A stretch of DNA of 63,951 nt, counting the filler, from Stramenopiles sp. TOSAG23-3 (taxonomy: Eukaryota): NCBI GenBank assembly GCA_900128585.1. It is 4 parts of 4 records of this genome, joined end to end, with 100 filler letters (N's around TTAATTAATTAA, not from the genome) between each part and the next. Parts side by side here need not be neighbours in the genome. Positions count along the whole stretch, not along the records: positions 16,151 to 32,178 come from LT642501.1; 3 more parts are not named here. One strand, 5' to 3'. The position numbers were made by a program, and so were the translations under genes. Shown here in pieces: positions 11,960 through 29,312 of this stretch. The notes beneath the pieces are model-generated. The model did not search any database. It saw only the letters and a list, made by a program, of their open reading frames with translations, and was not told the DNA's origin. The first letter of the stretch is position 1; each line of letters begins with the position of its first letter.

Positions 11960-14900
11960 TCACGGCCGCAGGCCCTCCCTCGCTTTCTTTAAAATGTCGC
12001 TCTTAATCTTCGGGTAGTCTGGAAACTTCGAAAGAATTTTATGGCATACTCGGATGGCGTCCAGGAACCGCTCCGCCTTCAGGTAGTTGAACGCCAACTT
12101 GAAGCCTATGGGGGCGTTTGCTTCGTTTGCGCACTTCCACGCCTGCTCGTAGTGCTCTGCAGCGTCTCTGTACGAACTCTCCTTCTCCATAATCAAACCC
12201 ATGTGCTCCCAGGCTTTCCCGCACGACTTGTTGTAAACGAGGCACCGTTTGCACAAATCCTGCGCAAGGTCGTACTTTCCGTTCGAAATGTAAATGTTGG
12301 CAAGCATGAGCCACCCTCGCTCGAAATCGTCGGCGTAGTCTGGGTTGTAGGACATTTTGTGAATTCGCTTCAGCTGGTTCCGCGCCTTGGGGACTTGGCG
12401 GAGCAACATCAGCGCGTTGGCCATGCCGCAGATGGCAGGGACATACTCTTTGTCGCCGCTGACCATTTCTACGAACCGTTGGACAGACCGTTCGATGTTT
12501 GATTTCTGCTTCGTGCACATGAGTGCGTAGGCTTCTAATACTAACACGCGGCGGGTTTTCGGCCTTCGCGTGATCTCCCTCAGCAGTTTCTCCGCGACTC
12601 GGACGGCTTCCCCGGTTTCCTGGCTATCGTCCTCCCAGAGCTCGTCGCTTTCCGGATTCAAATAAAGCTCGACCATGTTGATCAGAGCTTTCTCGCCCCA
12701 CATTCCACTCTTCCGCGCCTTGTTCAGCGTTCGGATCGACTCGGGAATATTGTTGGTGTATCTCAAGTAGAGCCCTCTGCAGAACATGAGCCCCGGGTCG
12801 TGCTTGCTTTTTGGGGAGTACGACTCCGCGGCCTTCATTATTTCTGGGGCTTCCTCGAGCTTCCCCGCGCGGCGCAGCAGGACGATCATGCGGAACAGGG
12901 CTTTGTGGTTGTTCGGCTTTCGCTGCAAGATCTGCTTGAAGTGGTACACTGCCTGCTCGTTCTCCCGCTTCTGGAACATGATGTCGGCCAGCATCATGGC
13001 CGCCTCTTCGTGGTTCTCGTCGATCCGCATGAGCAGGCCGCACTGGTGCTGGCACTTCTGCAGCTCGCCCTGCTTCAAGTAGAGCTTCGCCAGGCCCAGC
13101 ATGGCGACTTCGTACGAGTTGTCGTGCTCCAGCGCGTTCTTGAAAAATTTGACGGCGTCCCCCACGTCGTTGTTGTCCAGGTGGTGGTTTCCGATACGGT
13201 AGTCCAGCTTAGCGGCCTCCAGGCGCTGCTCCTGAGCGTTCGCGTCGTCCGACGACCGGGTGCGGGCGAGGATGTCCTGCTGGACCCCCCGGGCGGCCAG
13301 CAGGTCGCCCAGGGCCCCCTCGCTGTTGTTCATCCCCTGCTTCACCTCCGCGACGAGCAGCAGCAGGTTGACGTGCGCGATCATGTCCGGGACGCTGCTG
13401 CCCTCGGCGTTGTCGTGGCTCTGCTTCAAAATGCGCGAGGCATCGTCGAACTTTTTCAACTTTATGTACAGCCGGGCCAGGTCCCCGCGCAGGGACACTA
13501 TGTCCCCGCTGTTCCTCCCGGACGTGTCCCTCGAGCTGGCCTCCAGGGCATCCTCGTAGTACTCGATGGCGCGGTGGTACTCGTGGGTCTTGATGAACGC
13601 CCGGCCTATCATAAGGGCAAGGGCCTGGTCGTTCGGGTTCATCTTCAGCGCATCCTGGTAGGACAGTATGGCCTTCTCGGGCTCCTGGATGTTCATGTAC
13701 GCGTCCCCGAGCATGACGTGCGCGCTGGGCTTCGGGTTGATCTTCAGCATGGTCTGGTAGCACGCGATGTACTGCTTCTTGTCGTTCATGTTGGTGAGGT
13801 AAATCTTCGCCAGCACCATCTGGGCTTTCCCGAAGGCCGGGCTGTTCCGCTTCACCCCGCTCAGCTGGGCGATGGCCCGCTTGATCTTGCCCCGCTTCAG
13901 GGACAGCTCGCTGTTGGCCACGACAACGCGCACTTCTTCGGGGGTCCCTTGAAAAATCGCGGACGCGGTCTTGATGACTTTCGACGCGTCCTTGACCTGC
14001 CCCAGCTTCGTGTGGACGTTCGCCAGCGCGATGTAAATCGACGCGTGGTCGTGCATGGACAGGGTGCTGGACGGCCCGGCGTCCCGCTTCGACTCCCGCC
14101 CCCGCGACCCGCCCGCCAGCCTCGCGACCGCTCTCTCGACGCTCGGCAGCTTGAGGGCGGACCGGAGGACTTCGATGGACCCGGACACGTCCCCGGTGCC
14201 GTCCAGGACCTTCGCCTTGATCAGGTAAAAGAGCGGGGAGTCCCGCACCTTAAAGTCGTGGGCCAGCGCCTGCTCCAGCGAGTTGCTGGCCCCGCGAAAA
14301 TTCTCTTGAAAAATGGCAATCTGCGCCATGATGAGGTGCGCGTCGCTGTAGGTGGGCTTGAGGCGCAGGCAGTGCTTGAGCGTGCGCTCCGCGCTGTCGA
14401 AGCTGTTGTTCAAAAATTTTGACTTTGCAAGCTCCAGCTGCGCGTCCAACAGCCCCGGGACCTCCTTCGTCACCCTCGCCAAAATGTTCAGCGCTTTCGT
14501 CAGGTAGTGCGGGGTCGGCTCCCCGGCGTCGATGGGCTCCGCCCCGCAGTGCTTCATGTACTGGCGGGCGACCTGGAGCTGAAAGTCGACGTCGAAGTGG
14601 ACGAAGTAGTCGTAGGTCGACTTGAGGCTGCCCGAGCCGAGGGCCGACTGAAAGTGGGACATGCAGTCGTCCAGCATCGCGATCGAGCGCTCCTGGTCCC
14701 GATCCTTCTCCCACGCGATGACGGCGCTCAGGAAGATTATCTCGTAGCTGGACCCGATGCTGGTCTGGATCTCCTTCATAAACTCGATCTGCTGCTCCGC
14801 GTCCGTGAGCTGGCCCGCGGAGAGCTGGCAAAAGATCATCCCCGTGACCGCCTGAACGTTGGCGTCGTCCAGGCTCGCCCCTTGCTTGAACTCGTCGTTC

Positions 14901-16012
14901 GCGGTCCGCAGGTCGCCCAGAAGGACGTGCTGCTGGGCGCTCTCGGTGACGTAGAGGCTGTTCATCGGCGCCAGCTTCCGCGCGCGGCCGACGAGCTTGA
15001 GGGTCCCTTTCAGGATGTTCTTGTCCCTCCCCGAGAGGCGGGCGAGCGGGCGGGCGACGTTGAAGCAGAGCTCCGCGTTCATCGGCTCGTGGCGGTCGAC
15101 GCTGGTGATGAGGGTGTCGATGATACCCGCGGCCCGGCCGAGGTCGCCCGTCCGGGTGAGCGAGTGGAGGGCGGAGATCCGCAGGGCCTCGATGTCGTAC
15201 GGGTCCTGCTGGAGCACCCGCTCGGTGGTCTCGAGGGCCTGGTCCCAGTCCCCCATCATCATGAGCATTTTTCCCTTCCCCGAGAGGGCAGGGAGGAACC
15301 AGGGGTAGACCACGATCGCCTGGGTCAGGTGGTCCAGCGCCTTGCTGTACTGCTTCTTGAGCTCGAAGTACTTTGCCTTGCCCATGATCGCCTCCAAGTC
15401 CCTCGACGCCCGTTTCTTGTCCCCGAGGGCCTTCTCGAAGTAGGTGAAGCTCTTGTTCGCGAGCTCCTTCTCCTTCCTCGAGCTGGTCCCCTCCTCGGCG
15501 TCGTGGCGAGACTGGTGCTGCGTCGCGGTCAGGTCAATCCAGCCCCGGAGCGCGAGGGCCCGGGTGGTGAGCTTCTCGGACAGGGCCGAGTCGTCCAGCT
15601 GGGAGTTGACGAGCCGGCGGGCCTCCGCAATGCTCCCGGTGAGCCAGGAAAACGTCGCGGCGATGAGGACGCTCTCCGGGGTCGCCCGGTTCTCTGCGAC
15701 CCGGAGGGAGGACGAGAGCGAGTCGATGGCCTCGTGGTCCGTCAGGTCGGTGTTCTCGTGCGCCCAGATCAGCGCGAGGTGCGCGGGAAAACTAACGTCC
15801 CGGTTGTTCTTTATCCGCTCCCAGTCCCGTATCGCGGCGGTCCAGCTCCCCTCCTTCGCGACGCCGTACGCTTTCCAGAACAGCAGGTACCCGTCGTCCC
15901 CGCGCTTCTTCAGAACTTCCTCGCAAACCGTCTGGACGTGCCTCCAGTACCCTTCCCGGGCATAATGGTGCACGAGCGCCGAAATGTCCGTGTTGTTTCG
16001 CTTGTTGCTCAT
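11960..16012 (-). CDS. TTC21B: Intraflagellar transport protein IFT139 / TTC21B (IFT-A TPR protein), intronless
   Basis: 1350-aa TPR array. It starts with HYAREGYWRHVQ and ends with KARNQLKRI...YNKSCGKAWEHMGLIMEKE.SY.DAA..YE.AW...IGFKLAFNYLKA. Confidence 0.95.
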   Translation of the reverse strand: MSNKRNNTDISALVHHYAREGYWRHVQTVCEEVLKKRGDDGYLLFWKAYGVAKEGSWTAAIRDWERIKNNRDVSFPAHLALIWAHENTDLTDHEAIDSLSSSLRVAENRATPESVLIAATFSWLTGSIAEARRLVNSQLDDSALSEKLTTRALALRGWIDLTATQHQSRHDAEEGTSSRKEKELANKSFTYFEKALGDKKRASRDLEAIMGKAKYFELKKQYSKALDHLTQAIVVYPWFLPALSGKGKMLMMMGDWDQALETTERVLQQDPYDIEALRISALHSLTRTGDLGRAAGIIDTLITSVDRHEPMNAELCFNVARPLARLSGRDKNILKGTLKLVGRARKLAPMNSLYVTESAQQHVLLGDLRTANDEFKQGASLDDANVQAVTGMIFCQLSAGQLTDAEQQIEFMKEIQTSIGSSYEIIFLSAVIAWEKDRDQERSIAMLDDCMSHFQSALGSGSLKSTYDYFVHFDVDFQLQVARQYMKHCGAEPIDAGEPTPHYLTKALNILARVTKEVPGLLDAQLELAKSKFLNNSFDSAERTLKHCLRLKPTYSDAHLIMAQIAIFQENFRGASNSLEQALAHDFKVRDSPLFYLIKAKVLDGTGDVSGSIEVLRSALKLPSVERAVARLAGGSRGRESKRDAGPSSTLSMHDHASIYIALANVHTKLGQVKDASKVIKTASAIFQGTPEEVRVVVANSELSLKRGKIKRAIAQLSGVKRNSPAFGKAQMVLAKIYLTNMNDKKQYIACYQTMLKINPKPSAHVMLGDAYMNIQEPEKAILSYQDALKMNPNDQALALMIGRAFIKTHEYHRAIEYYEDALEASSRDTSGRNSGDIVSLRGDLARLYIKLKKFDDASRILKQSHDNAEGSSVPDMIAHVNLLLLVAEVKQGMNNSEGALGDLLAARGVQQDILARTRSSDDANAQEQRLEAAKLDYRIGNHHLDNNDVGDAVKFFKNALEHDNSYEVAMLGLAKLYLKQGELQKCQHQCGLLMRIDENHEEAAMMLADIMFQKRENEQAVYHFKQILQRKPNNHKALFRMIVLLRRAGKLEEAPEIMKAAESYSPKSKHDPGLMFCRGLYLRYTNNIPESIRTLNKARKSGMWGEKALINMVELYLNPESDELWEDDSQETGEAVRVAEKLLREITRRPKTRRVLVLEAYALMCTKQKSNIERSVQRFVEMVSGDKEYVPAICGMANALMLLRQVPKARNQLKRIHKMSYNPDYADDFERGWLMLANIYISNGKYDLAQDLCKRCLVYNKSCGKAWEHMGLIMEKESSYRDAAEHYEQAWKCANEANAPIGFKLAFNYLKAERFLDAIRVCHKILSKFPDYPKIKSDILKKAREGLRP

Positions 16013-16050
16013 GCCAGACCAGAAAGGGGTAGGAGTGTGTGGGTGTGTGT

Positions 16051-16150
16051 NNNNNNNNNNNNNNNNNNNNNNNNNNNNNNNNNNNNNNNNNNNNTTAATT
16101 AATTAANNNNNNNNNNNNNNNNNNNNNNNNNNNNNNNNNNNNNNNNNNNN
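16051..16150. other. Artificial scaffold linker (N run with TTAATTAATTAA, stops in all six frames)
   Basis: 100-nt N block with a central ttaattaattaa, identical to the blocks at 32179 and 48299. Confidence 0.95.
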
Positions 16151-16224
16151 AGAGCCATAGCATTAACGCAGATATAGATGCTATTTCACACCCACAGCGG
16201 ACCCTCCGCCACGCATTTACACCC

Positions 16225-16685
16225 CATCAAAAAAGGTCGAAAACAGAAAAATTGGGGTAAAAAAGGGCCAAAAACAAAAAAAATTGGGGTAAAAAAGGGT
16301 CGAAAAAAATAAATTGGGTGGAAAAACACCCGAATATTTTAAAATTGGGCGAAAAAATGAGTGAAAATTGAACGAAAATTGAGTGAAAATTGAGTGTTTT
16401 TTGAATAATCGATGAATATTTTGATTGAACTATCACCCCTTTTGATAACTATCACCCTTTTTCAATATTTTTTATTTTATACTTCTTATATATTTTCTTA
16501 CCATTTATCATCTTAAATAATTTTATTACTTTATTCAAATAAAAAAAAGGGGTGATAGTGGTGATAGTGGTGATAGTTTTTTCGACTTCGTTACAAAATC
16601 GAAAAATATTTTTCTGTTTTTTTAAATGAAATAAAAAAAGGGGGTTAACTATCACCCTTTTGGCTAACTATCACCCCTTTTGTGC
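16225..16685. repeat. Array of short direct and inverted repeats (AAAAATTGGG and ACTATCACC motifs), possibly a transposon subterminal region
   Basis: aactatcaccc at ~16428, 16447, 16647 and 16666. Three inverted ggtgatagt copies at 16551-16577. aaattggg occurs four times at 16248-16350. Confidence 0.7.
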
Positions 16686-16869
16686 TAAATCAACAAAATA
16701 CCGTTCGTTCATTCATAAAATCACCGGAGTTGAATCGCTCACAAAATGCCGGGGTAATACTAATAATCATTATCACTCGCAAAATCGTGGGTAATGGTCG
16801 TGAAAAAAAAAAAGCATAAGGAAAAGGTTAAAGAGCATTAAGCAAATTTATACGTTGTCGTTCTCAAGG

Positions 16870-17145
16870 GACCAAGTTGCCTGAGGAACAAGGCGTTCGT
16901 ACGTAATGTTTAATTCGTCTCAACTGAGATAACGAATAAGCTATTGTACACTAGCTGTGGTTCCCTGATAGCAACTAAGGGAGGGCCTCCCCCCTCTTTT
17001 TATTCTCCAGGTCTACCACTAAACGCTCGTGCCTTCCTCCCTTTTGGAAAGGCCTTTCTACAGGTAGCACGCCTACCGGAAAGAGGCAAGCCTCTGTCCT
17101 GTATGCTTGGTGTACCTGTATTACTTAATACCAGGCACCGGTAAT
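16870..17145. ncRNA. Candidate structured RNA or cis-element, family unknown
   Basis: GC-richer island with about seven consecutive or nested hairpins and no credible ORF (see findings). Confidence 0.35.
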
Positions 17146-17315
17146 CTAGTCTCTGTTGTAAGTTGTAATATTATAATTGCATATAATTCATACAAATACT
17201 AATTAAAATACCAAGGTCCTTCCTCCTCTCCCTTCTTCTTTTCACTTTTTCTCTTCGCGTTGGATGTGATTGATTGTCATACCAACCACTTCACTTGCTC
17301 TGTCGTTCTTTCTTT

Positions 17316-19991
17316 TTAAATGTGTATATTTTGAAAGTAGCGCTGCAATGTACTGTTGTCGGATTGTGTGGTAATAAATTGTAAGAATTCAGTCTTCAGA
17401 TCTCTCATTCCTTCTTTCGTTGATAATGCCACCTTTCTGTTTACGATGTCAAGGCTGGAGTGCTCTGGCAAAGACGACCGACGAAGTTTGGATCCTAGAA
17501 ATTCTGTTGCATAGACATTGAACCACAGGTCCGGTATAGTCCTAAATCGCGGCGGAAAATAGTTGAAGAAGTGCTCCAGCGAGAATGGGGGTCGAAACAT
17601 TGATGCAGGGACTGCCATTTGGGCACTGCCACAGTACGTAACTTCCTCATGAGTGACCGATCCGGTACGGTCCCAATACGATTCCAAGTTGAGGAACTTT
17701 AACGCCCACGTTGAAAATACATCCCCAGGGAACATATCGCTCTCACGCGCCATGCTTTCAATCATGTTCGCCGGCGATGCCACATCATCGTCCAAAAATA
17801 TAATTTGATTAAAGTTGCCAGCAATTGCTGTCGCCCCAATATATGAGAGTTTTGGACCAATATTTACAGGACTGTGGTGGACCCAGATAGAGTTGAAGGA
17901 GTGAGACAGATTCTTTTTGAAAACCTTTCGAAGGAATTTCTGAACTTCATACTCAATCCGGCACCTGGATTTGTAAGCGACGTTGTTATTCATGATAAAC
18001 AAATCTACTGGTGCCGTCTGAACTCTCAAATCATTCAGGATGCTTCCCAAATGTTTGATGCGTTTATACTGCAGTGCTACGACCGCCGTTCCCGCTGCCG
18101 CATCGCCCGTCCGATCTCTCACCTGGACACAGCCTCCTGGGGACTTGGTAAACACGCATGTAAACTTTAATCCTGGTCCGTTTTCGAATTCGATGGGGGC
18201 ACCCTTTCCGTACAGGCTTGGGGAGACCTCGTGTATTCCGACAAAAGGTATCGGTATCGTTGCGTAGTTGTTGTTGGTTTCCTTTGGGCGCTGATGCTTG
18301 GCCCATTTCCCAGGGCAGCTAGAGGGCAAACCGAACAGGTCCCACAGACGCCCTTCCTCCGTGCTCGGTGCAAACGGGTCGACGCTGTAATCGAGTACGG
18401 TTGGAAGGGACTGGCCGGATTTCTTTCGAGCCAAGACCATATTGTCCCCCAACGTATCGGACGGGACGCTCCCCGCTATCTTAATCTCATTCTCGTCAAG
18501 GAAGACACGCTCCCTCACAATTTTCATTCTTCGATCTACCGACAGTGTGCTTTGCCGCTCCAGCTGTTCCAAATAATCGGTAGAATCCATCATTTCATCT
18601 ACCAGAGCATGCATCTTTGACTTTAAGTTTTCCTTCCACGACGAGTCTCTAAAGTTTAGACCGCGGCGAAACTCAACGTTGGATTCGTACAACGTGTTCA
18701 AAGCGTTTTCCCAGCGGCTCTCAAAAAGTGGATTTTGAAACCCCCCCAACCCCATCGGAATTATCTGCTCCCTGCCCCCAAAGTCGTGCAGCCGTGCCAC
18801 GTGGGTTGTTAAATGCATCGAGGTTGCTTTCAGAAGGGCTTGGACACCCTTCGGGGCTTCCTCGCCCGGAAAATACGTCGAGGTGCTGTGAATGCAACCT
18901 CGCGGGACCCATAGGCTGTCCCCGGGCTCTAAGACCGCTTCCAAATACGGTTCCCCAAGCTTTGCCTCGTCGATTGCATCTCCTTCGTCCCTGCCAATGA
19001 TGTGACGCTTTTTTACGGGCAAGAAAAACTGCTCCTTTCTCCACAATCGCCACCGTTTGCGACCAGACAATTGTACCATCCAGCTGCCTGTAAAATCGAT
19101 GTGCGGCGGCGTCGCTACCCTCATCCCCGGGGGGGTAACGTAAACGTTCACGGAACTAATAGACCTGGAATGCTCCATTATCGCGGTGCAAAATCTTGCA
19201 AGCGATCGAACCCAGTGCTCTGCATGCAGCAGCTGAATGGAATAATTTTGCCGCAGCGCATCTAAAAGGCCACTCCCCAGCGCAAAGCCTTGGGGCAGAG
19301 TGGGGTCACCATTTCGTTTTGCCAAGCTACCTTTTAAAAAATTTACATTACGGTATGGAGACTTATACCCCCCGTTCCCGACCCTGTACCAATCACTGAC
19401 TAGTCTATTCGTCGAAAATGTCCATTGAAACATATTGGGCACCCCACGAACAAAGAGGGGCCAACGTTCGAAGTAATTTTCTTCAAACTCTTTGGAACCA
19501 ATGAAATCCAAGAACGCCGACTGGCTCCTCAGCGTTTTCCGTTGCTCGATGTACCGTGGGGCTTCGGTTCCGATTCGATCGGAAATTTCCATCTGGTCTG
19601 CGAAATATTGCTTTCGACGGGCAGAACCAGATTTATTTACATTGCCCAATTTTTCCTCCAATATATGTCTATTGTCGTACGCCTTTTCGTTGTCAGGGTT
19701 TAACCACAACGCCCTCTCAAAGGCGCGCAGAGCGTTGTCTAACTGTTGGGCGTGCATGTACGCCACGCCCAGGTCGTTCCAAGACGCCGCCGTATCCACC
19801 TTCACTGTATTAGCCATAAATGCCCGTATCGCGTTGTTATAGTCCCCCAACCTATCAAAATGAGCCCCTGCGGCCGCATGATCATGAACTCTGTTGTTGG
19901 CATCATACGACCGTGGCTCAAAAGAGGCCATTGTTTTTACCCCGTAAACCACAACCAAAAGGGTCCAAACAACCGCACCATAAAGTTTCAT
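17316..19991 (-). CDS. Signal peptide + TPR + JmjC (Cupin_4/RIOX-like) 2OG oxygenase + C-terminal GT-A glycosyltransferase-like domain
   Basis: Hydrophobic N-terminus MKLYGAVVWTLLVVV. TPR SWNDLGVAYM...AFERALWLNPDN. JmjC motifs NVYVTPPG, PPHID, QLSGRKRWRLW and LEPGDSLWVPRGCIH. GT-A motifs IIFLDDDV and PDLWF. Confidence 0.8.
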   Translation of the reverse strand: MKLYGAVVWTLLVVVYGVKTMASFEPRSYDANNRVHDHAAAGAHFDRLGDYNNAIRAFMANTVKVDTAASWNDLGVAYMHAQQLDNALRAFERALWLNPDNEKAYDNRHILEEKLGNVNKSGSARRKQYFADQMEISDRIGTEAPRYIEQRKTLRSQSAFLDFIGSKEFEENYFERWPLFVRGVPNMFQWTFSTNRLVSDWYRVGNGGYKSPYRNVNFLKGSLAKRNGDPTLPQGFALGSGLLDALRQNYSIQLLHAEHWVRSLARFCTAIMEHSRSISSVNVYVTPPGMRVATPPHIDFTGSWMVQLSGRKRWRLWRKEQFFLPVKKRHIIGRDEGDAIDEAKLGEPYLEAVLEPGDSLWVPRGCIHSTSTYFPGEEAPKGVQALLKATSMHLTTHVARLHDFGGREQIIPMGLGGFQNPLFESRWENALNTLYESNVEFRRGLNFRDSSWKENLKSKMHALVDEMMDSTDYLEQLERQSTLSVDRRMKIVRERVFLDENEIKIAGSVPSDTLGDNMVLARKKSGQSLPTVLDYSVDPFAPSTEEGRLWDLFGLPSSCPGKWAKHQRPKETNNNYATIPIPFVGIHEVSPSLYGKGAPIEFENGPGLKFTCVFTKSPGGCVQVRDRTGDAAAGTAVVALQYKRIKHLGSILNDLRVQTAPVDLFIMNNNVAYKSRCRIEYEVQKFLRKVFKKNLSHSFNSIWVHHSPVNIGPKLSYIGATAIAGNFNQIIFLDDDVASPANMIESMARESDMFPGDVFSTWALKFLNLESYWDRTGSVTHEEVTYCGSAQMAVPASMFRPPFSLEHFFNYFPPRFRTIPDLWFNVYATEFLGSKLRRSSLPEHSSLDIVNRKVALSTKEGMRDLKTEFLQFITTQSDNSTLQRYFQNIHI

Positions 19992-20551
19992 TGTTACGCT
20001 GGCGCGTCTACCCGTGCGTGAATTCAGGGAAATGTATACCAAACCACGATGCATATTCCTGCTTCCATTTATTATTTTTTATTCCAATGAAACCATACCC
20101 GCTGAAGAAGACATTATTCAATTTTTTATCATATATTTCATAAATATCAACCTTCTTCACCACCACAACTACCAAAAGCACGCCACGGTGTTTTTAATTT
20201 CTTCTTTTTTTTTTTTTTTTCTTTTTTTCTCTTCCTGCCTCCGTCCTCCTCTTTCCTCTTCCACCCTTTTCCTCCAATAATATATTTCAGCATTATTCAA
20301 TGTATTGTAATGGTGTGATAATGTAATATTTATCTACTTAGAGAGGGGAGAGGAGAGGGGAGAGGTCGTCTGTGTCGTCTGTTGAACAACACCACCATGG
20401 GTTTATGTTCCGTCGGGAAGTGATGAGTGTATTTCATGAATGTAAACACAAGATTTAATATACGAATGGAAAGTAAAGCAACTGTTTTCTTATTTAAGGT
20501 ATACATATAGTTACGAGTGTTCACTGTGATTGGAAGCGAGGGAAAAGGAAC

Positions 20552-21469
20552 ATGGCAAATCACACGCCAATCGTCGGTAAAGTTAGTCGTCGGGCACCTG
20601 GGAACATGTCGCCCTTGGTTGCCTCCCGTAAAGTTCCGGCGATGGGGGGTCCGAATCATGGCGTTGATTTTAGAAAATTAGAGCTCACGTTGGAAGAAGA
20701 CAAGAAGCTACTGGCGTATTTTGACTCGTATGTCAGCACTCGGACAAAATCTTCGCGCCCGGTTCAGGCAGTGGGGTCGGTGGTGCAGAGTCAGGTATCC
20801 AGTAAGACCAGGTTGGAGACTCCAGAGCGCGCCCAGTCTCTTGACCGCAACGCGCACCCTGTAGAAGCAGAGAGTGCCGCCAGCATGGCTGGGGCACCAT
20901 CGGCGCCAAATCATCAGCGCGGGGGAAATGAAGAAACCAGTGAATCGCCAGAGGAAAGAATAGTCAAATTTTTGTCAGACTCCATGGGGTTTGACCGTGA
21001 CGTCGCTGCAGTTGCCGCTGAGCGCTGTAAAGGTAACGTTGACCAGGCAGTCAACGATTTGTTAACAAATATGGAAGAATTAAAATCATTAGCCGCTGAA
21101 CAGTCCGGGCAAGATGGCACGCAGTGGCTGTTAAATCTCAGGGAAGGGTCAAGGGTGGATGTGCAGCGAAATGGGCAGTGGACCGAAGGTGTGATTGTGT
21201 CCAAGAATGTAGACAGGAACCTGATTCATGTCAGTGCCGAAGGATCTCCTAGCAAATGGTTCCGGATGGACACTCCGCGCATTGCCCCCCGTGGGACAGG
21301 TAGGAATGGACTGGCAAATGACAATGGTGTCTCGAACGGGGAAGGGGGTGATCGGTGGGTAGAAATGATGGACGCTGAGTCAGGACTGCCATATTATTAC
21401 AATTTGACCGATGGGCAGTCCACTTGGGAGAAGCCTTCCGTAATCGTAGACAGGGAAATGCCGACGTAG
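20552..21469 (+). CDS. UBA + Tudor/Agenet-like + WW domain protein
   Basis: UBA MGFDRDVA..A..RCKGNVDQAVNDLL. Tudor-like LREGSRVDVQRNGQWTEGVI. WW domain WVEMMDAESGLPYYYNLTDGQSTWEKP. Confidence 0.8.
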   Translation: MANHTPIVGKVSRRAPGNMSPLVASRKVPAMGGPNHGVDFRKLELTLEEDKKLLAYFDSYVSTRTKSSRPVQAVGSVVQSQVSSKTRLETPERAQSLDRNAHPVEAESAASMAGAPSAPNHQRGGNEETSESPEERIVKFLSDSMGFDRDVAAVAAERCKGNVDQAVNDLLTNMEELKSLAAEQSGQDGTQWLLNLREGSRVDVQRNGQWTEGVIVSKNVDRNLIHVSAEGSPSKWFRMDTPRIAPRGTGRNGLANDNGVSNGEGGDRWVEMMDAESGLPYYYNLTDGQSTWEKPSVIVDREMPT

Positions 21470-21513
21470 AGTATATAGGTTGCACTTCCGTCGTCTACTA
21501 TAAAGTTCTTAAT

Positions 21514-21940
21514 AACAAGAAAATTGGCTGTTATTTAAGTAATTAAATTTAGCTTCGTCGTACCCTAATCCTAACTTGATTCTGTAANNNNNNNNNNNNN
21601 NNNNNNNNNNNNNNNNNNNNNNNNNNNNNNNNNNNNNGCTTGCATATGAATCGTAATCAACTTCCTCATCCGATATCTCACTCAGAGATGAATCAATCCT
21701 TGTACCATTTTCCAAGTAAAAGAGTAAGTTTTACTCAAAGTGTCTTATTTTATATTAAGAATTTTATAATAAAATAAAATGTTTAGTTTTTAATTAATAT
21801 TATTAGAGTCTTAAAACATACTATATATTTTGGTTTTTTATTAGAATATATTAAAAAACATAAGCCATACTCTATGATATATATAATTTTTTTTTTTTTT
21901 GAATTACTCTCTATAAAATAACAGCCAATTTTCTTGTTTT
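21514..21940. mobile_element. MITE-like element bounded by 23-bp inverted repeats AACAAGAAAATTGGCTGTTATTT (contains a 50-N gap)
   Basis: Motif at 21514-21536 and its reverse complement at ~21916-21938. Internal modules are shared with the copies near 5627, 50341 and 62080. Confidence 0.6.
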
Positions 21941-21962
21941 TATTAAAAGAGTATAAGAAGAA

Positions 21963-23321
21963 TTATTCTTTTGAAGAGGAGGACCCCAAACAACAGTACT
22001 CCGATGCATAACCCTCGCTCTTTTTAATATCGACAGGGTGCATTTTAGCTTTTCTGATTGTTTCAAACGATAGAAGGGAATGATCGTAGACTTGGCATCG
22101 TTCTGGCGGGACTCCCAAATGCTTTGCTGTTATTTTGTACATTTCTATGTCCGCCTGGGAAAGGGAAAAGTCCTCTTGGGCCACGACAATATCGAAGAAT
22201 TTATGAAGCTTCAACTTCTTTAGAACCTTGATCACGTGCTTTCGCCCTTCGATCGCGACAACCGCGAGCTTTATGTTCCCGGCCCGTTTGGCATGTTTAA
22301 CTAGTTTCGTTGTGCACTGAAAATCTCTGATCTTTTCCTCACTATGTTTGTAGTACCAGTCCATTTTCTCCCTCGCTGCCTTTTCTAGAAGTTCTCGCAG
22401 TTCGTCTTTCCCCATCCCCTGCAAATGTCCCTTCCGCGCACAGAGACACCTCAGTGTAATCATTGGGTCTAGATTGGCCATGTCGTACACGTCCTTCCTG
22501 GAGAACGATAAATCTAATAACTTGGAAATGCTACGGTATGCCTCGAAGTGAAACTCCATGTTATCTACTATTGTCCCGTTAAAATTAAACAACAAGGCAT
22601 CGCAGCGCCCGTATTCATTGTGTATACTGCGGTAAAAATGTTCATCCTCGATCGACTTGCTGCACAGCGGAGTTGCCTCGATCGGGAACTGAAAGGCAGG
22701 CCCTGGCTGGAAAGTAACTTTCCCCGTGTAGTACAAGGATACGATTGGGAAATATTCATCTTTCGTTGCCTCTGTAATTACAAACGCTACCCCCTGGTCC
22801 ACACCGTTTTTGAAAAATTGTATCTCATACCAGCTTCCCTGTTTGTGACATTTTACGCACATTCCAATCACGTCCCCAGAACTGTACGGATCTCCGTACG
22901 CAGTTTTTACGCCTTTTGTAATTTTAGATCCATCAACATTGCAGTATCCGAACCCGTGCATATCGAACCCCACTGGGGCCTCAAGCTCGGCACTCGAAGT
23001 TGCCCAGCCCACTCGTACGTGAGCACCCCCACCTTCCGGCTTGACGTTTAAATCGCAGCCCGTTATCTTATACTCACAATACCAGGTGCCGCTTGAAACC
23101 ATCGAAACACCATGGGAACAGCGCGCCGAACTGTACCCATTTGTCATGCCAGAAACGTGCAGGCAACATTTTGAAAGTCGCAAATTGTGCGACTTATCTA
23201 CGTGTGAAATCGATACCCCTTTCGGTTGGTGATAGACACCGACTCCACCTTCCCCAGGCTCATTGATTACATTATCATGGGAGAGCTTGACCTTTTTCAA
23301 CTCCGGTTCACCGCCACTCAT
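21963..23321 (-). CDS. ASH2L/Bre2-like SPRY domain fused to a degenerate HAD (beta-PGM/CbbY-like) domain
   Basis: SPRY: SARCSHGV..GTWYCE, HVRVGWA..AELEAPVGFD..GFGY and AYGDPYSSGDVIG. HAD: LLFNFNGTIVDNM..HFEAY, FFDIVVAQED and LGVPPERCQVYDHS. Confidence 0.8.
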   Translation of the reverse strand: MSGGEPELKKVKLSHDNVINEPGEGGVGVYHQPKGVSISHVDKSHNLRLSKCCLHVSGMTNGYSSARCSHGVSMVSSGTWYCEYKITGCDLNVKPEGGGAHVRVGWATSSAELEAPVGFDMHGFGYCNVDGSKITKGVKTAYGDPYSSGDVIGMCVKCHKQGSWYEIQFFKNGVDQGVAFVITEATKDEYFPIVSLYYTGKVTFQPGPAFQFPIEATPLCSKSIEDEHFYRSIHNEYGRCDALLFNFNGTIVDNMEFHFEAYRSISKLLDLSFSRKDVYDMANLDPMITLRCLCARKGHLQGMGKDELRELLEKAAREKMDWYYKHSEEKIRDFQCTTKLVKHAKRAGNIKLAVVAIEGRKHVIKVLKKLKLHKFFDIVVAQEDFSLSQADIEMYKITAKHLGVPPERCQVYDHSLLSFETIRKAKMHPVDIKKSEGYASEYCCLGSSSSKE

Positions 23322-23635
23322 GTGGGTGCGACGGAGACAGTAACTCTGTGGGAACGTGTACACAGCCGCGTTGATAGTTGTTGCACCAGCCAAAGTTGTA
23401 TCAAACGGAAAGTAAGTCTCGTAAACTCTCAATCCGAATCAATGGAGTCTGTCAAAATATATATTGGATATCAGATTAAGATAGAAACATTGATGTTCTA
23501 CTAAAATTCTATATCGAAATTATAATAATTAATAAATATCAACAATAATAATAATAATAATAAAATAATATATTTTTTTATTTATTTTTTAGTAGTGTAT
23601 TATTATTATTAATAATATACTTGATAATAATACAT

Positions 23636-23825
23636 ACTTCTTCTATCTTCTTTTCTCTTCTTCTACGAGGCGTACTTCTTCTTTCTTCTTCTTCTTCTTC
23701 TTCTTCTTCTTCTTCTTCTTTCTTCTTTCTTCTTTCTTCTTTCTTCTTCTTCTTCTTCTTCTTTCTACTTATTCTTCTTCTTCTTTTCTTCTCTCTTCTT
23801 CTTCTTCTTCTTCTCTTCCTCCACC
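23636..23825. repeat. (TTC)n microsatellite
   Basis: Read directly. Confidence 0.9.
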
Positions 23826-24126
23826 CATCCTCCCATAAACATAATATTAATAAACACCACACATCTTCTTCTTCTCCTCCTCCATCATCATCATATTAGC
23901 TTATATCATCATCATCATTATTATAATAATTATTAATATTATTCATCCATCCAATCAAAAAAAACAAATTCAAGTTTATATTTTATAGAGAGAGAGCGAG
24001 GATAAATAAGATTCGCGCGTTTTCCTTCAATAATTTGGTTACTTTATTTCACTGGAAATCTCTTGTTTTTTGTTTTGACCAGGGGGTGGTTATTTTTACA
24101 TCCAGTATAGGGTCTCCGTGCGAACG

Positions 24127-26829
24127 ATGAAGACCGTGCGGGCAACGGTGAAGACCGCACAGCGACGGTGCTACTCGTCGTTGACGGGGACGAAATGTTC
24201 GTTTCTGTGCGTGGTATTAGTAGGTGGGGCATTGAACATGGTGCTGTTTGCACTTCATTTCAATGCCGGGTGTGTGCACTGTGATATGTGCAAGTATGGA
24301 GGCTATGGGTCTGGGGTTATCGACAATATTGGAATGGAGGATTTTTCACGAAAAATGTGTATGCCTCCCATTGACGTTGTGTACACTTGGGTGAACGGGT
24401 CCGACCCGGAGTGGTTAATGGAAATGGAATACTACAGGTACAAGGGGCATAATCCGTCGCGTTCGCTTTCCAGGGCGAAATGGAACGAAAGCAACATTTT
24501 CCCTGGCCCGTCCCGATACAACGCTTCTCTCAACTCGAGCGCGCTGGGGGCGAACTTTACCGTGCTTGCCTCGAACGGGTCGGAGCCGTCAGTTGGTTCG
24601 TCCAACAGGTATCGCGACAACCATGAATTGAAGTATTCCTTTCGGTCCTTGTTCAAGTATGCCCCTTGGATCCGAAAAGTGTTTCTTGTTACTTCGGGCC
24701 AAGTTCCGAACTGGTTGAACACTGCGCATCCAAGAATAAAAGTTTTTTCACACCAAGATATTTTTTTAAACTCGTCTTGGCTGCCTACGTTCAGTTCACC
24801 GGCAATTGAGACGCAGCTGCACCGCATTCCTGGGCTGTCAAAGAAGTTCATATACTTTAACGACGATGTTATGCTTGGTGCACCGGTATGGCCGGAGGAT
24901 TTTTTCAACATCGCAGGGGCACAGAAGGTATTCCTGTCATGGGACGTACCAAAGTGTAACCCAGGGTGTACCGATTCCTGGGTCGGCGACGGACAGTGTG
25001 ACCTAAATTGCAACGTCAGCAGGTGTATGTGGGACTTGGGCGACTGCTTTAACGTGTCGAAAAAAAATGCGTACGGGTATCGTCAATCGTATTCTAGTAG
25101 CTCCTCTCACGGGACCAGTCGCTCGTGGGCCTACTGCGCAGTAGGCTGTCCAAGCACCTGGATCGGGGACAAAGTCTGCGACAAAAAGTGTGATTCTGCA
25201 GCCTGCGGTTTTGACGGCGGCGATTGCGGTATAAAGGAAGTGTGGGGGGGGCTGAAGGGGTTCGAGCTGCCCGTGCGTGCGACGGGCGAGGCGGCCGCGA
25301 AGCCTCTTGGCATGGCTGCTAATGCAACGGATCTTGCACTAGATCCTAGTCGTAACATCACTGTGCATGTATGGTCAAACGCGAGTGGGCCGGGCAGCAA
25401 CAACAGCGTTTTACCTATCGCTGCAGCAGAGACTGCCGCGAAAATCGAACCTGTCGCTCTGGGCCAGTACGATTTGCCCCAAGGTTGCCAGGCGGTCTAT
25501 TTCAATTTAAGCGTCAGTGGACGGTTTGAAGGATACGGTGTAGACGTAGTTCGGGCCAACCATAACAACCCCGACGCAATAGGGAGCGCGGTCGTGCTAA
25601 AGCACTTTGGGGTCATGGTTGTTATATTTAGGAACGAAGACTACGCCCAAGAGCTTGGGTGGACGTCAAGTACAATCAAGGTGGAGCTTGCGCTGACGAA
25701 GACGGTCATTGTCGGAAATTCGAGTGTGGTTGAAGATTCTCAAAATGTTTGGATATCGTTTTCCACATTGTCGAATTTAAAAGAAATCCCCGTTTCTAAG
25801 AACAGCACGACCACCGCTGCACTAATGCCCAATTCGAACGTAAACGCATCCGCCCCTCCCCGCAATGGGAGCGAGACGACAATGATAAGCATCGTTGGCG
25901 ATGGGAAAAACGAACCTTTCCCGGTTGCCTCCAACGTGAGCTTTTTTTCGACGGCAGGAAACAGGTCAGAAGGGGTCCACTTTTCTTCCCGAAACGGGCG
26001 GCGACTACTCGGGTCCGAGGACACCTATGGAGATTCGCTTGTTAAAGTGAACATGATGTATGCAAAGGAATTTGGCGCATCCTCCCGAAAAGTTCCTGCG
26101 CACATGCCGCACATGATCGACAGGGACGTTATGGACGAGCTGCAAGACAAATACGAGAAAGAATTTTGGTACACAGGCCAGCAAAAATTCAGAACATCGG
26201 CCGACATGCAGTTCGCATTTTCATATTTTCATTGGGTTATTAATAGGAAGAGCAAAATCAACATCGAAAATATTTTTCGCAGTGAGATAGACACGGACCA
26301 AAATGGCTACCTCGACCCGAATGAAGTCAGAACCCTAGCCGCAATGATCACTGGAAAAACGCCGCCGCATGATCTTTTGGATAGGCTTACGGCAAACTGC
26401 AGCACCTTGGACGAGCTGAAGATGTGCAAAGATGCAATCGAGACGCTCTCTAAGAACTTTCGCCGCCCGAAAACGCACATTAAAGCGGACCTGGACGAAG
26501 TTACGTTTCAAATGATCGGAGACAACTTTAACGAGACAAAAGAAAAGTTGGACAGTATCCGTGCGAAAAAGACCAAGTTCATTTGCGTCAATGATGACAT
26601 GCACAATCCTGCGCTTGAATTGGAGCAGATGCTCGCAGACTTTTACAAATCCATGTTCCCTAAGCCTAGCCCTTTTGAACTGCCACCGGGGCAGACAAAT
26701 GGGGGGCGAAACATCTTTGAAATAAGACGCCATAAAGTTAGACAAGTGCCACCATTGCTTCAATCATTGGTCTTGTGCATTGCAATTATTGGCGCTGTTG
26801 GATCTCTTTTTGGTTACCTTGCCCTTTAA
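24127..26829 (+). CDS. GNPTAB: GlcNAc-1-phosphotransferase alpha/beta precursor-like (Stealth family) with two LNR repeats, an EF-hand and N- and C-terminal TM segments
   Basis: CR1 PIDVVYTWVNGSD. CR2 ELKYSFRSL...LPTFSSPAIE..LHRIPGLS..FIYFNDD. Two C..SW.GD..CD..C LNR repeats. CR3 RKVPAHMPHMID...DMQFAFSYF. EF-hand DTDQNGYLDPNE. CR4 KFICVNDDM. Confidence 0.9.
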   Translation: MKTVRATVKTAQRRCYSSLTGTKCSFLCVVLVGGALNMVLFALHFNAGCVHCDMCKYGGYGSGVIDNIGMEDFSRKMCMPPIDVVYTWVNGSDPEWLMEMEYYRYKGHNPSRSLSRAKWNESNIFPGPSRYNASLNSSALGANFTVLASNGSEPSVGSSNRYRDNHELKYSFRSLFKYAPWIRKVFLVTSGQVPNWLNTAHPRIKVFSHQDIFLNSSWLPTFSSPAIETQLHRIPGLSKKFIYFNDDVMLGAPVWPEDFFNIAGAQKVFLSWDVPKCNPGCTDSWVGDGQCDLNCNVSRCMWDLGDCFNVSKKNAYGYRQSYSSSSSHGTSRSWAYCAVGCPSTWIGDKVCDKKCDSAACGFDGGDCGIKEVWGGLKGFELPVRATGEAAAKPLGMAANATDLALDPSRNITVHVWSNASGPGSNNSVLPIAAAETAAKIEPVALGQYDLPQGCQAVYFNLSVSGRFEGYGVDVVRANHNNPDAIGSAVVLKHFGVMVVIFRNEDYAQELGWTSSTIKVELALTKTVIVGNSSVVEDSQNVWISFSTLSNLKEIPVSKNSTTTAALMPNSNVNASAPPRNGSETTMISIVGDGKNEPFPVASNVSFFSTAGNRSEGVHFSSRNGRRLLGSEDTYGDSLVKVNMMYAKEFGASSRKVPAHMPHMIDRDVMDELQDKYEKEFWYTGQQKFRTSADMQFAFSYFHWVINRKSKINIENIFRSEIDTDQNGYLDPNEVRTLAAMITGKTPPHDLLDRLTANCSTLDELKMCKDAIETLSKNFRRPKTHIKADLDEVTFQMIGDNFNETKEKLDSIRAKKTKFICVNDDMHNPALELEQMLADFYKSMFPKPSPFELPPGQTNGGRNIFEIRRHKVRQVPPLLQSLVLCIAIIGAVGSLFGYLAL

Positions 26830-27555
26830 TCTTTTGACAGAAATGTTTCATATTGAATTATTTGCTGTAGGCTGTAGGGTATAAAATATCAATAACACAC
26901 AATAATATATGATAACAAGTTTTTTGTTTTTATTATGTGATAAATATTTTATACTACTATTTAAAAGTACTACCGGTACCGGTGTATCCAATCATCAGAT
27001 TTTATATTAAATTATTATATTATTAGTCCTAAAATAATATATAATTGGATAATAATGAATACGATGAATCGAAGCTTCTTCTAGAGAAAAAGGATTGAAG
27101 AATTTAATTATTATTGGAATTATACATTCAAATAGCAAGCAAATAAAGAGCAACCTCATTGTTGTTGTTGTTGTTTGTTATAATAATAAATAAAAATGAA
27201 AAAAAAAAAAAAGTATTATTATTTTTTTTTAAAGTTGATTTTTGAAATTACAATTACATCAAAACAGCACCAACAACAACAGCAAAATAAATATTACACA
27301 CACAAAAAAAGAACGAAGGAGAAAAAAAAAGAAGGCAGCAGGAGGAGAAATGACATCATGACACACGTCGTTGTTTTTTTTTTTGTGTTGTTATTATTAT
27401 TCTATTGGTTGGTGTTGTCCGTCCGTTCGGGATGTATACGTATATGAATAGAGGAGTATAATTCTATGGAAAATTTCTCTAGTTCTAACAGCATCTTTTT
27501 GAAAAACGCTTTTCTAACATTGGTATTGCCCTTACTGCCCGACTGTCCTGAAGCC

Positions 27556-28686
27556 ATGGAACATTACACGCGTGGAAACGAACTCTTTGTGGACGAAAAC
27601 TATGTAGGTGCTCTTGAAGCGTTTTCGAAAGCAATCGAGACGGACGAAGCAATTGAGACTAGCAAACTAGCATCGTTTCATGTGAAACGGGCGGCGGCGC
27701 ATTTGAAATTGAAACAGTACGACGAAGCTCTTGACGATGGTACAAAAGCTGTCGAGTTCAACCCTGATCTTGAGATGGCATACTTGCGAAAAGGCACGGC
27801 AGCGTTTCACTTGGAAGAGTTTGAAACCGCAAAGGCGGCCTTTGCCGCCGGAAAAAGCCTCAAGCATGCCAATGGCGGCGACGTGAGCAGTTATGACACA
27901 TGGATCCGAAAATGCGACGCGGAGCTAGAAGACATGGATTCATCTGATGAAGATAGCGACGGGACTCTGAAGGCTGCCGCAGCTGCCCCTGAGAGCAGCC
28001 CTGCACCGGTTGAAAACGTGCCCCCAGCGAAACCCGCCGGCTATCGGTACGACTGGTATCAAACGCAAAACTATGTAGTGCTGACCGTTATGGCGAAACA
28101 AAAAAAAGCAGAAGAGGTTAATGTTAGCTTTGCATCAAAAAATGTTTGTGTATCAATAGCCATGGAGAACGGGAATGAATACCTCCTTGATCTCGATGTG
28201 TTCGATGAGATAGACGCGGACTCCTCTTCGTTCAAGATCATGTCTACGAAAGTGGAGGTCAAATTGATCAAGGTGGGTAAATTCCAATGGCCTTCCCTGG
28301 AACGGCCCGAAGACCAAGTTATCTTACAAACAGCGGCAGGGGAGACCCAAGTCAGCACATCGTACAACACGAAGCCAAAGGCCTACAGTTCGAATAAGGA
28401 CTGGGATGCGATTGGCACCGACCTGAAGAAACAGGAAGAAGAAGAGAAATTGGAGGGCGAAGACGCGTTGAACAAACTCTTTCGGGACATTTATTCAAAA
28501 GCAAATGAAGATACTCGCCGTGCAATGAACAAATCTTTTCAAACGAGTGGTGGGACGGTCTTGTCCACCAATTGGGGGGAAGTATCTGACAAAGATTATG
28601 AAAAAGAAAAAGTTGCTCCCGATGGAATGGAATGGCGAAATTGGGAAGGCGATAAACTTAAAAAAGATGGAACTCCGAAAGAATAA
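27556..28686 (+). CDS. SGT1: SGT1 Hsp90 co-chaperone (TPR-CS-SGS)
   Basis: TPRs ending in WIRKCDAE, a CS domain RYDWYQT...STKVEVKL.K, and an SGS domain ALNKLFRDIY...RRAMNKSFQTSGGTVLSTNW. Confidence 0.95.
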   Translation: MEHYTRGNELFVDENYVGALEAFSKAIETDEAIETSKLASFHVKRAAAHLKLKQYDEALDDGTKAVEFNPDLEMAYLRKGTAAFHLEEFETAKAAFAAGKSLKHANGGDVSSYDTWIRKCDAELEDMDSSDEDSDGTLKAAAAAPESSPAPVENVPPAKPAGYRYDWYQTQNYVVLTVMAKQKKAEEVNVSFASKNVCVSIAMENGNEYLLDLDVFDEIDADSSSFKIMSTKVEVKLIKVGKFQWPSLERPEDQVILQTAAGETQVSTSYNTKPKAYSSNKDWDAIGTDLKKQEEEEKLEGEDALNKLFRDIYSKANEDTRRAMNKSFQTSGGTVLSTNWGEVSDKDYEKEKVAPDGMEWRNWEGDKLKKDGTPKE

Positions 28687-29312
28687 TAAGGTCGACGACA
28701 GCAAGAAGAAGAAGAAATTGAAGTGGTGTTCGTATTTTAAAAATATTGAATAAATACCTTGGTACCTGATGTATATAATAATAATAAAAAGGAGTGGAGA
28801 GTGGAGAGGGAGGAGGGGGGGAGCCACAACAAACAAAAAGAGAACAAGAGAATTGATTTGGTGTGGTGGTGTTGTTGTGTTCATTCATAATCTTTTTTTA
28901 TTATGTTGTTGTTATGTTTATTATTATGAATAATACTTGTATGAATAATAATATATTTTTTAAAATTATTTTATTATTAAAATAATAAATAATAATTTAT
29001 ACACCACACAGCCTAGACCCTACACCCTACACACAGTAAGAGAATGTGGTGTGATAAGGTGGTGTAGTAAATAAGGAGGTGTAAGTAATATTTTTATCAC
29101 ACTTACTCTAACGTACAATATACAATTTATTAATAATTATTGCATGAATGATGTAGTATACTCCTCCGGAGCTCTGGAGCATCAAAAAAAAGATATGTAT
29201 AGAAAAACGATTGTGTTAAGATTGATGTAAGATAACAGGGTAAAGTGAATTTTTTGTACGAATTCGGATTGTTAGGTTGAGTTTCTGTGTGTGTGTGTGT
29301 GCGTGGTATAAA

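Follow-up and report, generated by a model that had tools for sequence, protein, structure and literature searches.

Here, a single gene of an uncultured stramenopile is described that encodes tetratricopeptide repeats (TPRs), a JmjC oxygenase domain and a GT-A glycosyltransferase (GT) domain behind a hydrophobic N-terminus. The gene lies on the minus strand at positions 17316..20054 of a 63,951-nucleotide stretch of DNA, called the window below, from Stramenopiles sp. TOSAG23-3 (GCA_900128585.1); the window joins four parts of four records with filler between them, and positions 16,151 to 32,178 come from LT642501.1. The TPR-JmjC-GT architecture is real, conserved and expressed, and apparently has not been described so far. 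The product is a bifunctional hydroxylase-glycosyltransferase built of non-homologous parts. In the reading preferred here, at a probability of roughly 0.55, it would work in the lumen and in two steps, hydroxylating a protein substrate docked on the TPRs and then glycosylating the new hydroxyl. To our knowledge, hydroxylation-dependent O-glycosylation is established for hydroxylysine (collagen, through PLOD3 and COLGALT, and L230) and hydroxyproline (plant hydroxyproline-rich glycoproteins and Skp1), and the oxygenases in the cases known to us are always of lysyl- or prolyl-hydroxylase type.

A conserved and expressed TPR-JmjC-glycosyltransferase gene

The open reading frame (ORF) at 17316..20054 has 912 codons without an internal stop and encodes 912 amino acids plus the stop. 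Its first ATG is at 20054-20052 and yields the 912-aa form, while the second in-frame ATG, at 19991-19989, yields an 891-aa form (P0001) whose residue numbering is used throughout; all features of the protein given below are on the minus strand. An identical 912-aa protein is present in public data (P0002). The frame is 2.7 kb long, has a G+C content of 49% against about 36% in its flanks and has homologues that reach E 9e-297 in a protein search, and for these reasons it is not a chance frame. It contains no N runs, although the draft assembly has them elsewhere, and the rest of the window is built alike, with high-G+C intronless ORFs on both strands and AT-rich spacers between them.

The same order of domains is found well beyond this genome. 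A word-based protein search returned 14 proteins at E <= 1e-3, one of which is the ORF's own 912-aa form; nine further clusters (P0003-P0011) have an identical domain order at 35-54% identity and 77-97% query coverage, P0012 covers 24% of the query and three others match the TPRs only. Some of the nine end at contig ends, or an intron may interrupt them beyond 'STWG'. The P0009 cluster is represented at full length by P0186 (913 aa), the P0003 cluster includes a EukProt entry labelled Stramenopile MAST-4, and P0026 (793 aa), recovered by a profile search with the C-terminal part, also has a JmjC_2 domain. The linker between the two catalytic domains is itself conserved, with D538, P539, P542, W550, C559, Y594, P599, C612, G619 and C621 invariant in the family.

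Public sequencing runs carry the gene as well. Among the 24 runs listed, 20 contain part of the stretch and 14 contain at least half of the sampled words; six are RNA libraries. Contigs from four RNA libraries, each of a different study and two of polyA or oligo-dT type, match at 99% identity or more and tile 17219-18715 and 19215-20050, the first of which takes in the GT domain and the linker and reaches back to about residue 425, thereby bridging residues ~425-889. No joints, indels or loose ends were seen in the RNA contigs over the ORF, and the bins on either side, 17100-17206 and 20096-20300, had no RNA contigs. The whole ORF is not spanned by any one RNA contig, and where a transcript ends cannot be proved from contigs; a single unspliced mRNA is well but not conclusively supported. 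An earlier, sequence-only reading of this DNA had proposed one intronless gene starting at 19991, now seen to be the second in-frame ATG, and had named protist transcriptomes as the place to look for the same domain order. The open frame supports the first point, and the nine clusters show that order elsewhere; the RNA contigs, the independent DNA runs and the homologous clusters all agree on one gene with no chimeric join. The motifs are also where that reading had put them (H297 at 19101-19103, D299 at 19095-19097, H368 at 18888-18890, FLDDDV at 17781-17798 and PDLWF at 17520-17534).

The TPR array covers residues ~30-120 (19632..19904), about 2.5 repeats with five helices, and matches Pfam TPR_1 at E 2e-9 (37.3 bits, where the cut-off is 27.8). 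It is the sole confidently modelled part of the full-length structural model, with a predicted local distance difference test score (pLDDT) of 77-92. Compared with the TPRs of PEX5 and OGT in VIA-align, the modelled repeats give Z ~14, a score that helical repeats reach easily.

The oxygenase is a JmjC domain of the double-stranded beta-helix (DSBH) type at residues 231-370 (18882..19301), resembling RIOX/NO66 in its Pfam and PDB matches. Pfam JmjC_2 (PF08007) matches at E 1.6e-16 (60.4 bits, where the cut-off is 22; relatives score 50-68 bits), and Cupin_8 matches the same protein weakly (E 0.0076). In phmmer the best PDB match outside the TPRs is human NO66/RIOX1 (E 1.3e-15, residues 231-370), and a family profile searched against the PDB finds NO66 at 1.2e-17 and MINA53 at 2e-14, with the alignment confined to the JmjC part. 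The alignment with NO66 pairs PPHIDF with APHYDD, QLSGRKRW with QLEGRKLW and PRGCIH with PRGFIH. On this basis the iron triad would consist of H297-x-D299 (19095..19103), aligned with the HYD of NO66, and the distal ligand H368 (18888..18890), within PRGCIH. K312 (19056..19058) aligns with the lysine of 'LEGRK' in NO66, there the ligand of the C5 carboxylate of 2-oxoglutarate (2OG), and is a candidate for the same role. H297, D299, K312 and H368 are invariant in 10/10 and 14/14 family sequences. The domain is accordingly classed, by similarity, as a member of Pfam JmjC_2 nearest to RIOX1/2, with its predicted Fe and 2OG ligands intact.

Between the oxygenase and the GT domain lies a middle region (residues 371-628; 18108..18881), recognised by its invariant residues, in which a helical part following the JmjC domain gives way to a cysteine-containing linker. 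Its invariant positions include H393, H397, D403, R426, W427, D538, P539, W550, C559, C612, G619 and C621. Pfam gave no match in this region, whose pLDDT is low in the full-length model, and neither WHD_RIOX1 nor WHD_ROXA was matched in Pfam at E up to 1. Foldseek with the poor full-length model aligned 370-446 columns with NO66 at 20% identity and a template modelling (TM) score of 0.1. Ribosomal oxygenases are defined, in the part of PMC6182338 drawn on here, by a helical dimerisation domain and a C-terminal winged-helix domain. Since neither domain was detected, the protein is not filed as a ribosomal oxygenase proper.

The C-terminal domain (residues 629-889; 17325..18107), delimited by its HMM envelope, is confidently predicted to be a GT-A glycosyltransferase whose nearest structures are retaining UDP-N-acetylhexosamine (HexNAc) transferases of families GT45 and GT64. 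The AlphaFold2 model of this domain, built from a 99-sequence alignment (A2), has a pLDDT of 84.7, a predicted TM score (pTM) of 0.83 and 221 residues at 90 or above, with disorder only in the first 37 linker residues. Foldseek against the PDB gave 333 matches at E <= 1e-3, and the best 50 of these 333 are all glycosyltransferases, led by EXTL2 (9.7e-9), SpsA, AvpGT, PmHS2, EXTL3, KfiA and the GT domain of LH3. In VIA-align the highest Z was obtained with the N-acetylglucosaminyltransferase (GlcNAc-T) domain of PmHS2 (20.5 over 227 aa, 3.1 A), followed by EXTL2 (19.9), EXTL3 (18.7), EXT2 (18.1) and KfiA (16.1); other GT-A enzymes gave Z 15-16, and the fold scores thus favour GT45/GT64 by 2-5 units. 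ESM-Atlas features point to GT2/GT64 clusters at 0.95.

Active-site positions can be read from the same comparisons. The A2 profile, searched against PDB sequences, finds PmHS2 at E 9.1e-13 on its second (GT45) domain, aligning DDD with DDD and the profile's eDLW with ADIYF. D734-D735-D736 (17784..17792), invariant in the family, would be the DXD metal and nucleotide-sugar motif, which in GT-A enzymes follows the fourth strand. D821 of PDLWF (17529..17531), aligned with the D of 'ADIYF', is the candidate catalytic Asp; in EXTL2 the 'ED' is presumably the active-site Asp motif. A numbering offset of 92 between the HMMER and VIA ranges would make PmHS2 Asp569 the counterpart of D821, and the part of bioRxiv 10.64898/2026.10.20.760405 drawn on here proposes Asp569 as the nucleophile of retaining GlcNAc transfer, near-universal in GT45. 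In a wide alignment the DDD positions hold D in 99-100% of 97 occupied rows and the D821 position holds D in 98% of 96. Also retained are R644, Q658, N668-670, N710, Y772, R775, Y786, G788, P813, W823 and K866.

When residues 560-891 were run in HMMER against all of 1.84 billion representatives, 155 matches were obtained at E <= 1e-3, 45 of them at <= 1e-10. Those outside the fusion family are mostly proteins of 220-330 aa that match over query residues ~76-316. When 66 of the 150 listed matches (36 + 30) were scanned with Pfam, PF09258 (GT64) was found in four and PF00535 in many; among the first 36, a Glycos_transf_2 match sits on the stretch that matches the window's domain in 13 single-domain proteins. 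The domains named by the sequence-only reading therefore stand: the TPRs by their Pfam match, the JmjC domain with an intact metal triad by JmjC_2 and the NO66 alignment of H297, D299 and H368, and the GT-A fold by AlphaFold2, Foldseek and VIA-align. Its guess of a 'GT2/GT64-like' enzyme proved right, GT64 and GT45 HexNAc transferases being the nearest structures.

Hydroxylase links and the proposed two-step reaction

The GT domain belongs to a group in which a second kind of protein hydroxylase also occurs. Four of the 66 scanned relatives (P0029, P0037, P0062 and P0081) carry an N-terminal Asp_Arg_Hydrox domain (PF05118, E 7e-11 to 2e-14), the domain of aspartyl hydroxylase (AspH), directly ahead of the GT domain; P0037 has an extra GT2 domain and P0029 a UPF0227-like tail. 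For trees of the GT domain, 142 of 156 proteins were retained at 170 or more profile positions (local HMM) and 14 shorter ones, P0022 among them, were dropped. In the FastTree analysis of the 142 domains, one branch with a support of 98 holds 24 rows, comprising all seven JmjC-fused, all four AspH-fused, four GT-TPR-like and nine unlabelled rows. An IQ-TREE quick search on 64 rows, those 24 and one in three of the remaining 118, returned the same branch with 22 rows (SH-aLRT 98), P0098 and P0125 having left it. Two of the unlabelled rows, P0016 and P0017, are fusion-family fragments. P0213, inside the JmjC-fused group, is probably a fragment of the JmjC-GT fusion family, and P0033 and P0041, which by eye share the linker and tail of the AspH fusions, may be truncated copies.

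The closest non-fused GT domains are those of four fragments (P0019, P0022, P0025 and P0028), up to 41% identical over 178 aa (E 1e-39), in which the GT domain is followed by a TPR-like helical tail with 'AWNNLGVALLR', reminiscent of the N-terminal TPR of the fusion protein. The tail is TPR-like by eye and its matches are weak (Pfam TPR_16 at E 0.046 in 1/5, and a BLAST high-scoring segment pair with the window's TPR at E 0.061). These sequences may represent a permuted architecture, or may be tails of longer genes. Full-length GT-TPR-like forms were not found in metagenome contigs searched with alignment A4, and a word-based search gave four fragments only. Meanwhile, three Ala-rich proteins of 671-704 aa on contigs of ~2.6 kb (P0012, P0206 and P0207) have a signal-TPR-JmjC_2 order without a GT domain; at 28% identity over 236 aa (E 1e-16), they appear to be a distant GT-less counterpart in another lineage. 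By their predicted domains, these proteins show a GT subclade that is repeatedly tied to protein-hydroxylase domains and TPR-like modules. The fusion of the same subclade to JmjC and to Asp_Arg_Hydrox supports, and does not prove, an acceptor that depends on a hydroxylase, and it suggests that hydroxylase-coupled glycosyltransferases form a broader class not yet described.

Two other sets of relatives were noted. P0027 (497 aa) has a signal-like N-terminus, a GT domain of the same subclade and a C-terminal extension with HVDH...THG...SLR; its candidacy as a 2OG oxygenase, raised by eye, was rejected, with no Pfam match at E up to 10 and an hhalign probability of 0.2 against AspH domains. A common N-terminal domain of ~190 aa, 'R.EF.N.G...W', is found in P0060, P0065, P0076, P0083, P0110 and others (~400 aa) and has no Pfam match; it was considered as an AspH-type domain and dropped, having no phmmer similarity to AspH domains.

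In the two-step reading, the protein would be a bifunctional protein-modifying enzyme of the endoplasmic-reticulum (ER) or Golgi lumen, possibly secreted. Its TPR array would dock a protein of the secretory pathway, as the TPRs of human AspH do with EGF domains, and the JmjC domain would then hydroxylate a side chain of the docked protein. JmjC-only hydroxylases typically make C3, C4 or C5 hydroxy derivatives of His, Arg, Lys, Asn and Asp. The GT-A domain would finally move a sugar, perhaps HexNAc, from a UDP-sugar onto the new hydroxyl, which would make the protein a JmjC/GT64-like analogue of PLOD3 and mimivirus L230. Of these steps, we infer both the binding of the substrate by the TPRs and the placing of the sugar on the hydroxyl made by the JmjC domain.

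Several points weigh against this reading. The full-length AlphaFold2 model (14 sequences) has a pLDDT of 59.5, so that domain packing, the tail of the JmjC domain and the proximity of the two active sites cannot be read from it; Foldseek and VIA-align on that model re-found only NO66 (TM 0.1), the GT-A domain and the TPRs. Pfam gave no match on the window's own GT domain at E up to 1, neither PF09258 nor PF00535. Two positions of the GT domain depart from its relatives, S716 (R in 91% of them) and P820 (E in 81%); both changes are common to the whole fusion family and could point to an activity that is altered or lowered. Because the Pfam matches of the relatives are mostly to GT2, an inverting family, neither retention of configuration nor a HexNAc donor is certain. 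The trees are unrooted, their rows were chosen for resembling the window's domain, and many rows are skewed in composition. Scans for AspH-GT fusions with P0029 and alignment A5 found no match in contigs of prokaryote genomes; in viral contigs P0029 found none and A5 found 35 loci, all in the hydroxylase part only (residues 4-235). The oxygenase of the AspH-GT proteins could also act on non-protein substrates. Lastly, inspection of the C-terminus found no KDEL-type signal.

The main rival, unlikely but to be taken seriously, is that both domains are active on one TPR-docked substrate and modify it independently at different sites, the sugar going for example onto Ser/Thr or extending a glycan. 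The nearest solved enzymes (PmHS2, EXTL2, EXT2 and EXTL3) do use sugar acceptors rather than amino-acid hydroxyls, and both halves occur apart, as GT-TPR-like fragments with no detected oxygenase and as signal-TPR-JmjC proteins with no GT; from these split forms it follows that each half can function with TPRs alone. They are, however, fragments or distant relatives at 28% identity, and the presence of two unrelated hydroxylase families on one GT subclade is more easily explained if the acceptor is the product of a hydroxylase.

That only one of the two domains is catalytic, the other serving as a binder (a lectin-like GT-A or a recognition-only JmjC), is improbable. The S716 difference, P/S/T in place of the usual E at 820 and the missing Pfam GT match would fit such a loss on the GT side, yet DDD734-736, D821 and the other GT positions listed above, from R644 to K866, are kept, and the four predicted Fe and 2OG ligands are invariant in all 14 family sequences.

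If the two-step reading is true, it extends the logic of hydroxylation followed by glycosylation to residues attacked by JmjC hydroxylases, places a RIOX-like enzyme in the secretory pathway and provides a recombinant target that is directly testable by 2OG turnover and UDP-sugar transfer. There is a fair chance that the enzyme writes a modification not yet seen. A broader proposal is offered tentatively, as possible rather than probable: that marine stramenopiles carry, on secreted or surface proteins, an unseen O-glycosylated beta- or gamma-hydroxy residue (His, Arg, Lys, Asn or Asp) made by one TPR-JmjC-GT enzyme, and that a subclade near GT45/GT64, joined to JmjC and to AspH-type domains in separate fusion events, has become specialised for acceptors made by 2OG oxygenases. 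The organisms concerned are abundant uncultured marine grazers, one relative being labelled MAST-4, and their surface biology is almost unknown.

Cellular location, gene integrity and neighbouring genes

A hydropathy scan places a hydrophobic segment at residues 5-18, GAVVWTLLVVVYGV (19938..19979). In the 13 sequences scanned, two of which are the window's own gene and three its cluster-mates, 19-residue windows above 1.6 occur at the N-terminus only, with no further hydrophobic segments. The best 15-residue window in the first 40 residues reaches at least 1.8 in 12 of the 13; the remaining sequence, P0006, gives 1.65, and its start looks shortened. By eye, the window's protein has a cleavage-like site of small residues, KTMA|SF, and relatives have a classical signal pattern (LLLLAAPAAAS|G in P0009 and FLAFASAS|I in P0010). 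The 912-aa form adds a 21-residue R/K-rich tail ahead of the hydrophobic core, the usual layout of type II Golgi enzymes. The segment would therefore form a signal-peptide core or, with translation beginning at 20054, serve as a type II signal anchor; with either start the bulk of the protein should be lumenal. This call rests on hydropathy, conservation in relatives and the cleavage-like site seen by eye.

Five cysteines (366, 559, 612, 621 and 677) are invariant in the 10-sequence family alignment, and the eukaryotic GT64 enzymes known so far are Golgi or lumenal. Together with the conserved hydrophobic segment, these points lead to the predicted lumenal location, and a topology of this kind argues for a class of substrate other than that of the RIOX enzymes. 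The signal-peptide-like N-terminus of the sequence-only reading is thus found again and is conserved in relatives. Its description of the protein as secreted needs qualifying: the signal-like segment is there, but a resident lumenal enzyme of the ER or Golgi, with a cleaved signal or an anchor, is at least as likely.

The protein might instead be anchored in a membrane with its catalytic domains facing the cytosol, the JmjC domain acting there like RIOX on ribosomal or other cytosolic proteins; this too is improbable. RIOX1/2 and YcfD do hydroxylate ribosomal proteins in the cytosol or nucleus, as stated in the part of PMC6182338 drawn on here. The segment is, however, short (12-17 residues) and N-terminal, it is followed by cleavage-like sites in several relatives (AAAS|G in P0009, ASAS|I in P0010) and positive charges precede it in the 912-aa form. 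The invariant cysteines and the lumenal location of eukaryotic GT64-type enzymes count against a cytosolic enzyme as well.

The artefact that would undo all of this, two adjacent genes fused by a lost stop or a chimeric contig, is effectively refuted, because the domain order is repeated in nine clusters of other origin with a conserved linker, RNA contigs cross residues ~425-889 unbroken and without joints, at least half of the stretch is present in 14 runs, and the N runs of the draft assembly all lie outside the ORF.

Other ORFs of the window were noted alongside the fusion gene. Four kb from it, at 24118-26829 on the plus strand, a 903-aa ORF combines two Notch/LNR repeats with all four Stealth regions, CR1-CR4 (CR2 at E 1e-45); these are the domains of GlcNAc-1-phosphotransferase-like enzymes, which also transfer sugar in the secretory pathway. 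A 489-aa ORF at 21963-23432 (minus strand) combines an SPRY domain with a HAD-type hydrolase. On another of the joined parts, 11960-16012 (minus strand) encodes, from its translation, a helical-repeat protein of 1350 aa, and the opposite strand there has long spurious high-G+C ORFs at 12800-14422 and 14507-16102. Pairs of 44-base N runs with 12 bases between them occur at the filler positions 16051-16094 and 16107-16150, 32179-32222 and 32235-32278, and 48299-48342 and 48355-48398.

Comparison with known systems

By sequence, the closest oxygenases are RIOX1/NO66, RIOX2/MINA53 and YcfD, which share the HxD...H triad and the aligned lysine with the window's protein. NO66 and MINA53 are ribosomal histidyl C3-hydroxylases; as described in the part of PMC6182338 drawn on here, they are nuclear or cytosolic and have the dimerisation domain and winged-helix tail, without a signal peptide, TPRs or a GT domain. 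The view of the sequence-only reading that this class of oxygenase is intracellular applies to RIOX1/2 and YcfD and does not extend to all JmjC proteins, since JMJD8 has a signal peptide and resides in the ER lumen (PMC5684140, in part). JMJD8 consists of a JmjC domain only, without TPRs or a GT domain, and Cupin_8 is a much poorer match to the window's domain (E 0.0076) than JmjC_2 (E 1.6e-16). JMJD8 itself belongs to the Cupin_8-type group.

Human AspH offers the nearest layout of the N-terminal half, being an ER-lumenal, membrane-anchored protein whose TPRs precede a 2OG oxygenase for the hydroxylation of folded domains of secretory proteins (PMC6817910, in part). Its oxygenase is PF05118 and it has no GT domain, whereas the window's protein has no PF05118 match, so that the TPR-oxygenase layout and the predicted lumenal topology are all that the two share. 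For the C-terminal half, the GlcNAc-T of PmHS2 and KfiA (both GT45) and EXTL2, EXTL3 and EXT2 (GT64) are the best profile and fold matches, with the DDD and the active-site Asp aligned; all are retaining alpha-1,4-HexNAc transferases. Those enzymes extend glycosaminoglycans on glucuronic acid, their identity to the window's domain is 10-18%, and the latter falls below the Pfam thresholds for GT64 and GT2. In the Skp1 pathway of Dictyostelium and Toxoplasma (PhyA and the GT60 enzyme Gnt1), the acceptor of an alpha-GlcNAc transferase arises by hydroxylation; unlike the protein described here, that pathway is cytosolic and divided among separate proteins, with an oxygenase of the prolyl 4-hydroxylase type and a GT60 transferase. 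A JmjC-glycosyltransferase fusion was not found described in the literature searched, and the terms 'glycosyl', 'TPR' and 'signal peptide' do not occur in the paper on RIOX evolution and phylogeny.

None of PLOD3, L230, AspH and JMJD8 has both catalytic domains of the window's protein. The closest parallel in overall design is with PLOD3/LH3 and mimivirus L230, in which a 2OG oxygenase and a GT-A domain are likewise joined in one lumenal polypeptide, and the GT-A domain of LH3 gives Z 15.3 against the GT model in VIA-align. L230 hydroxylates lysine and then glycosylates the resulting hydroxylysine (PMC5802723, in part). In PLOD3 and L230 the GT domain comes first, the oxygenase is a C-terminal LH-type DSBH and there are no TPRs, whereas here TPRs are present and a JmjC_2 oxygenase precedes a GT64/GT45-like glycosyltransferase. 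The relation to PLOD3 and L230 is therefore one of analogy and not orthology: the protein is not a member of their family, and the same pairing of activities has been put together from different parts.

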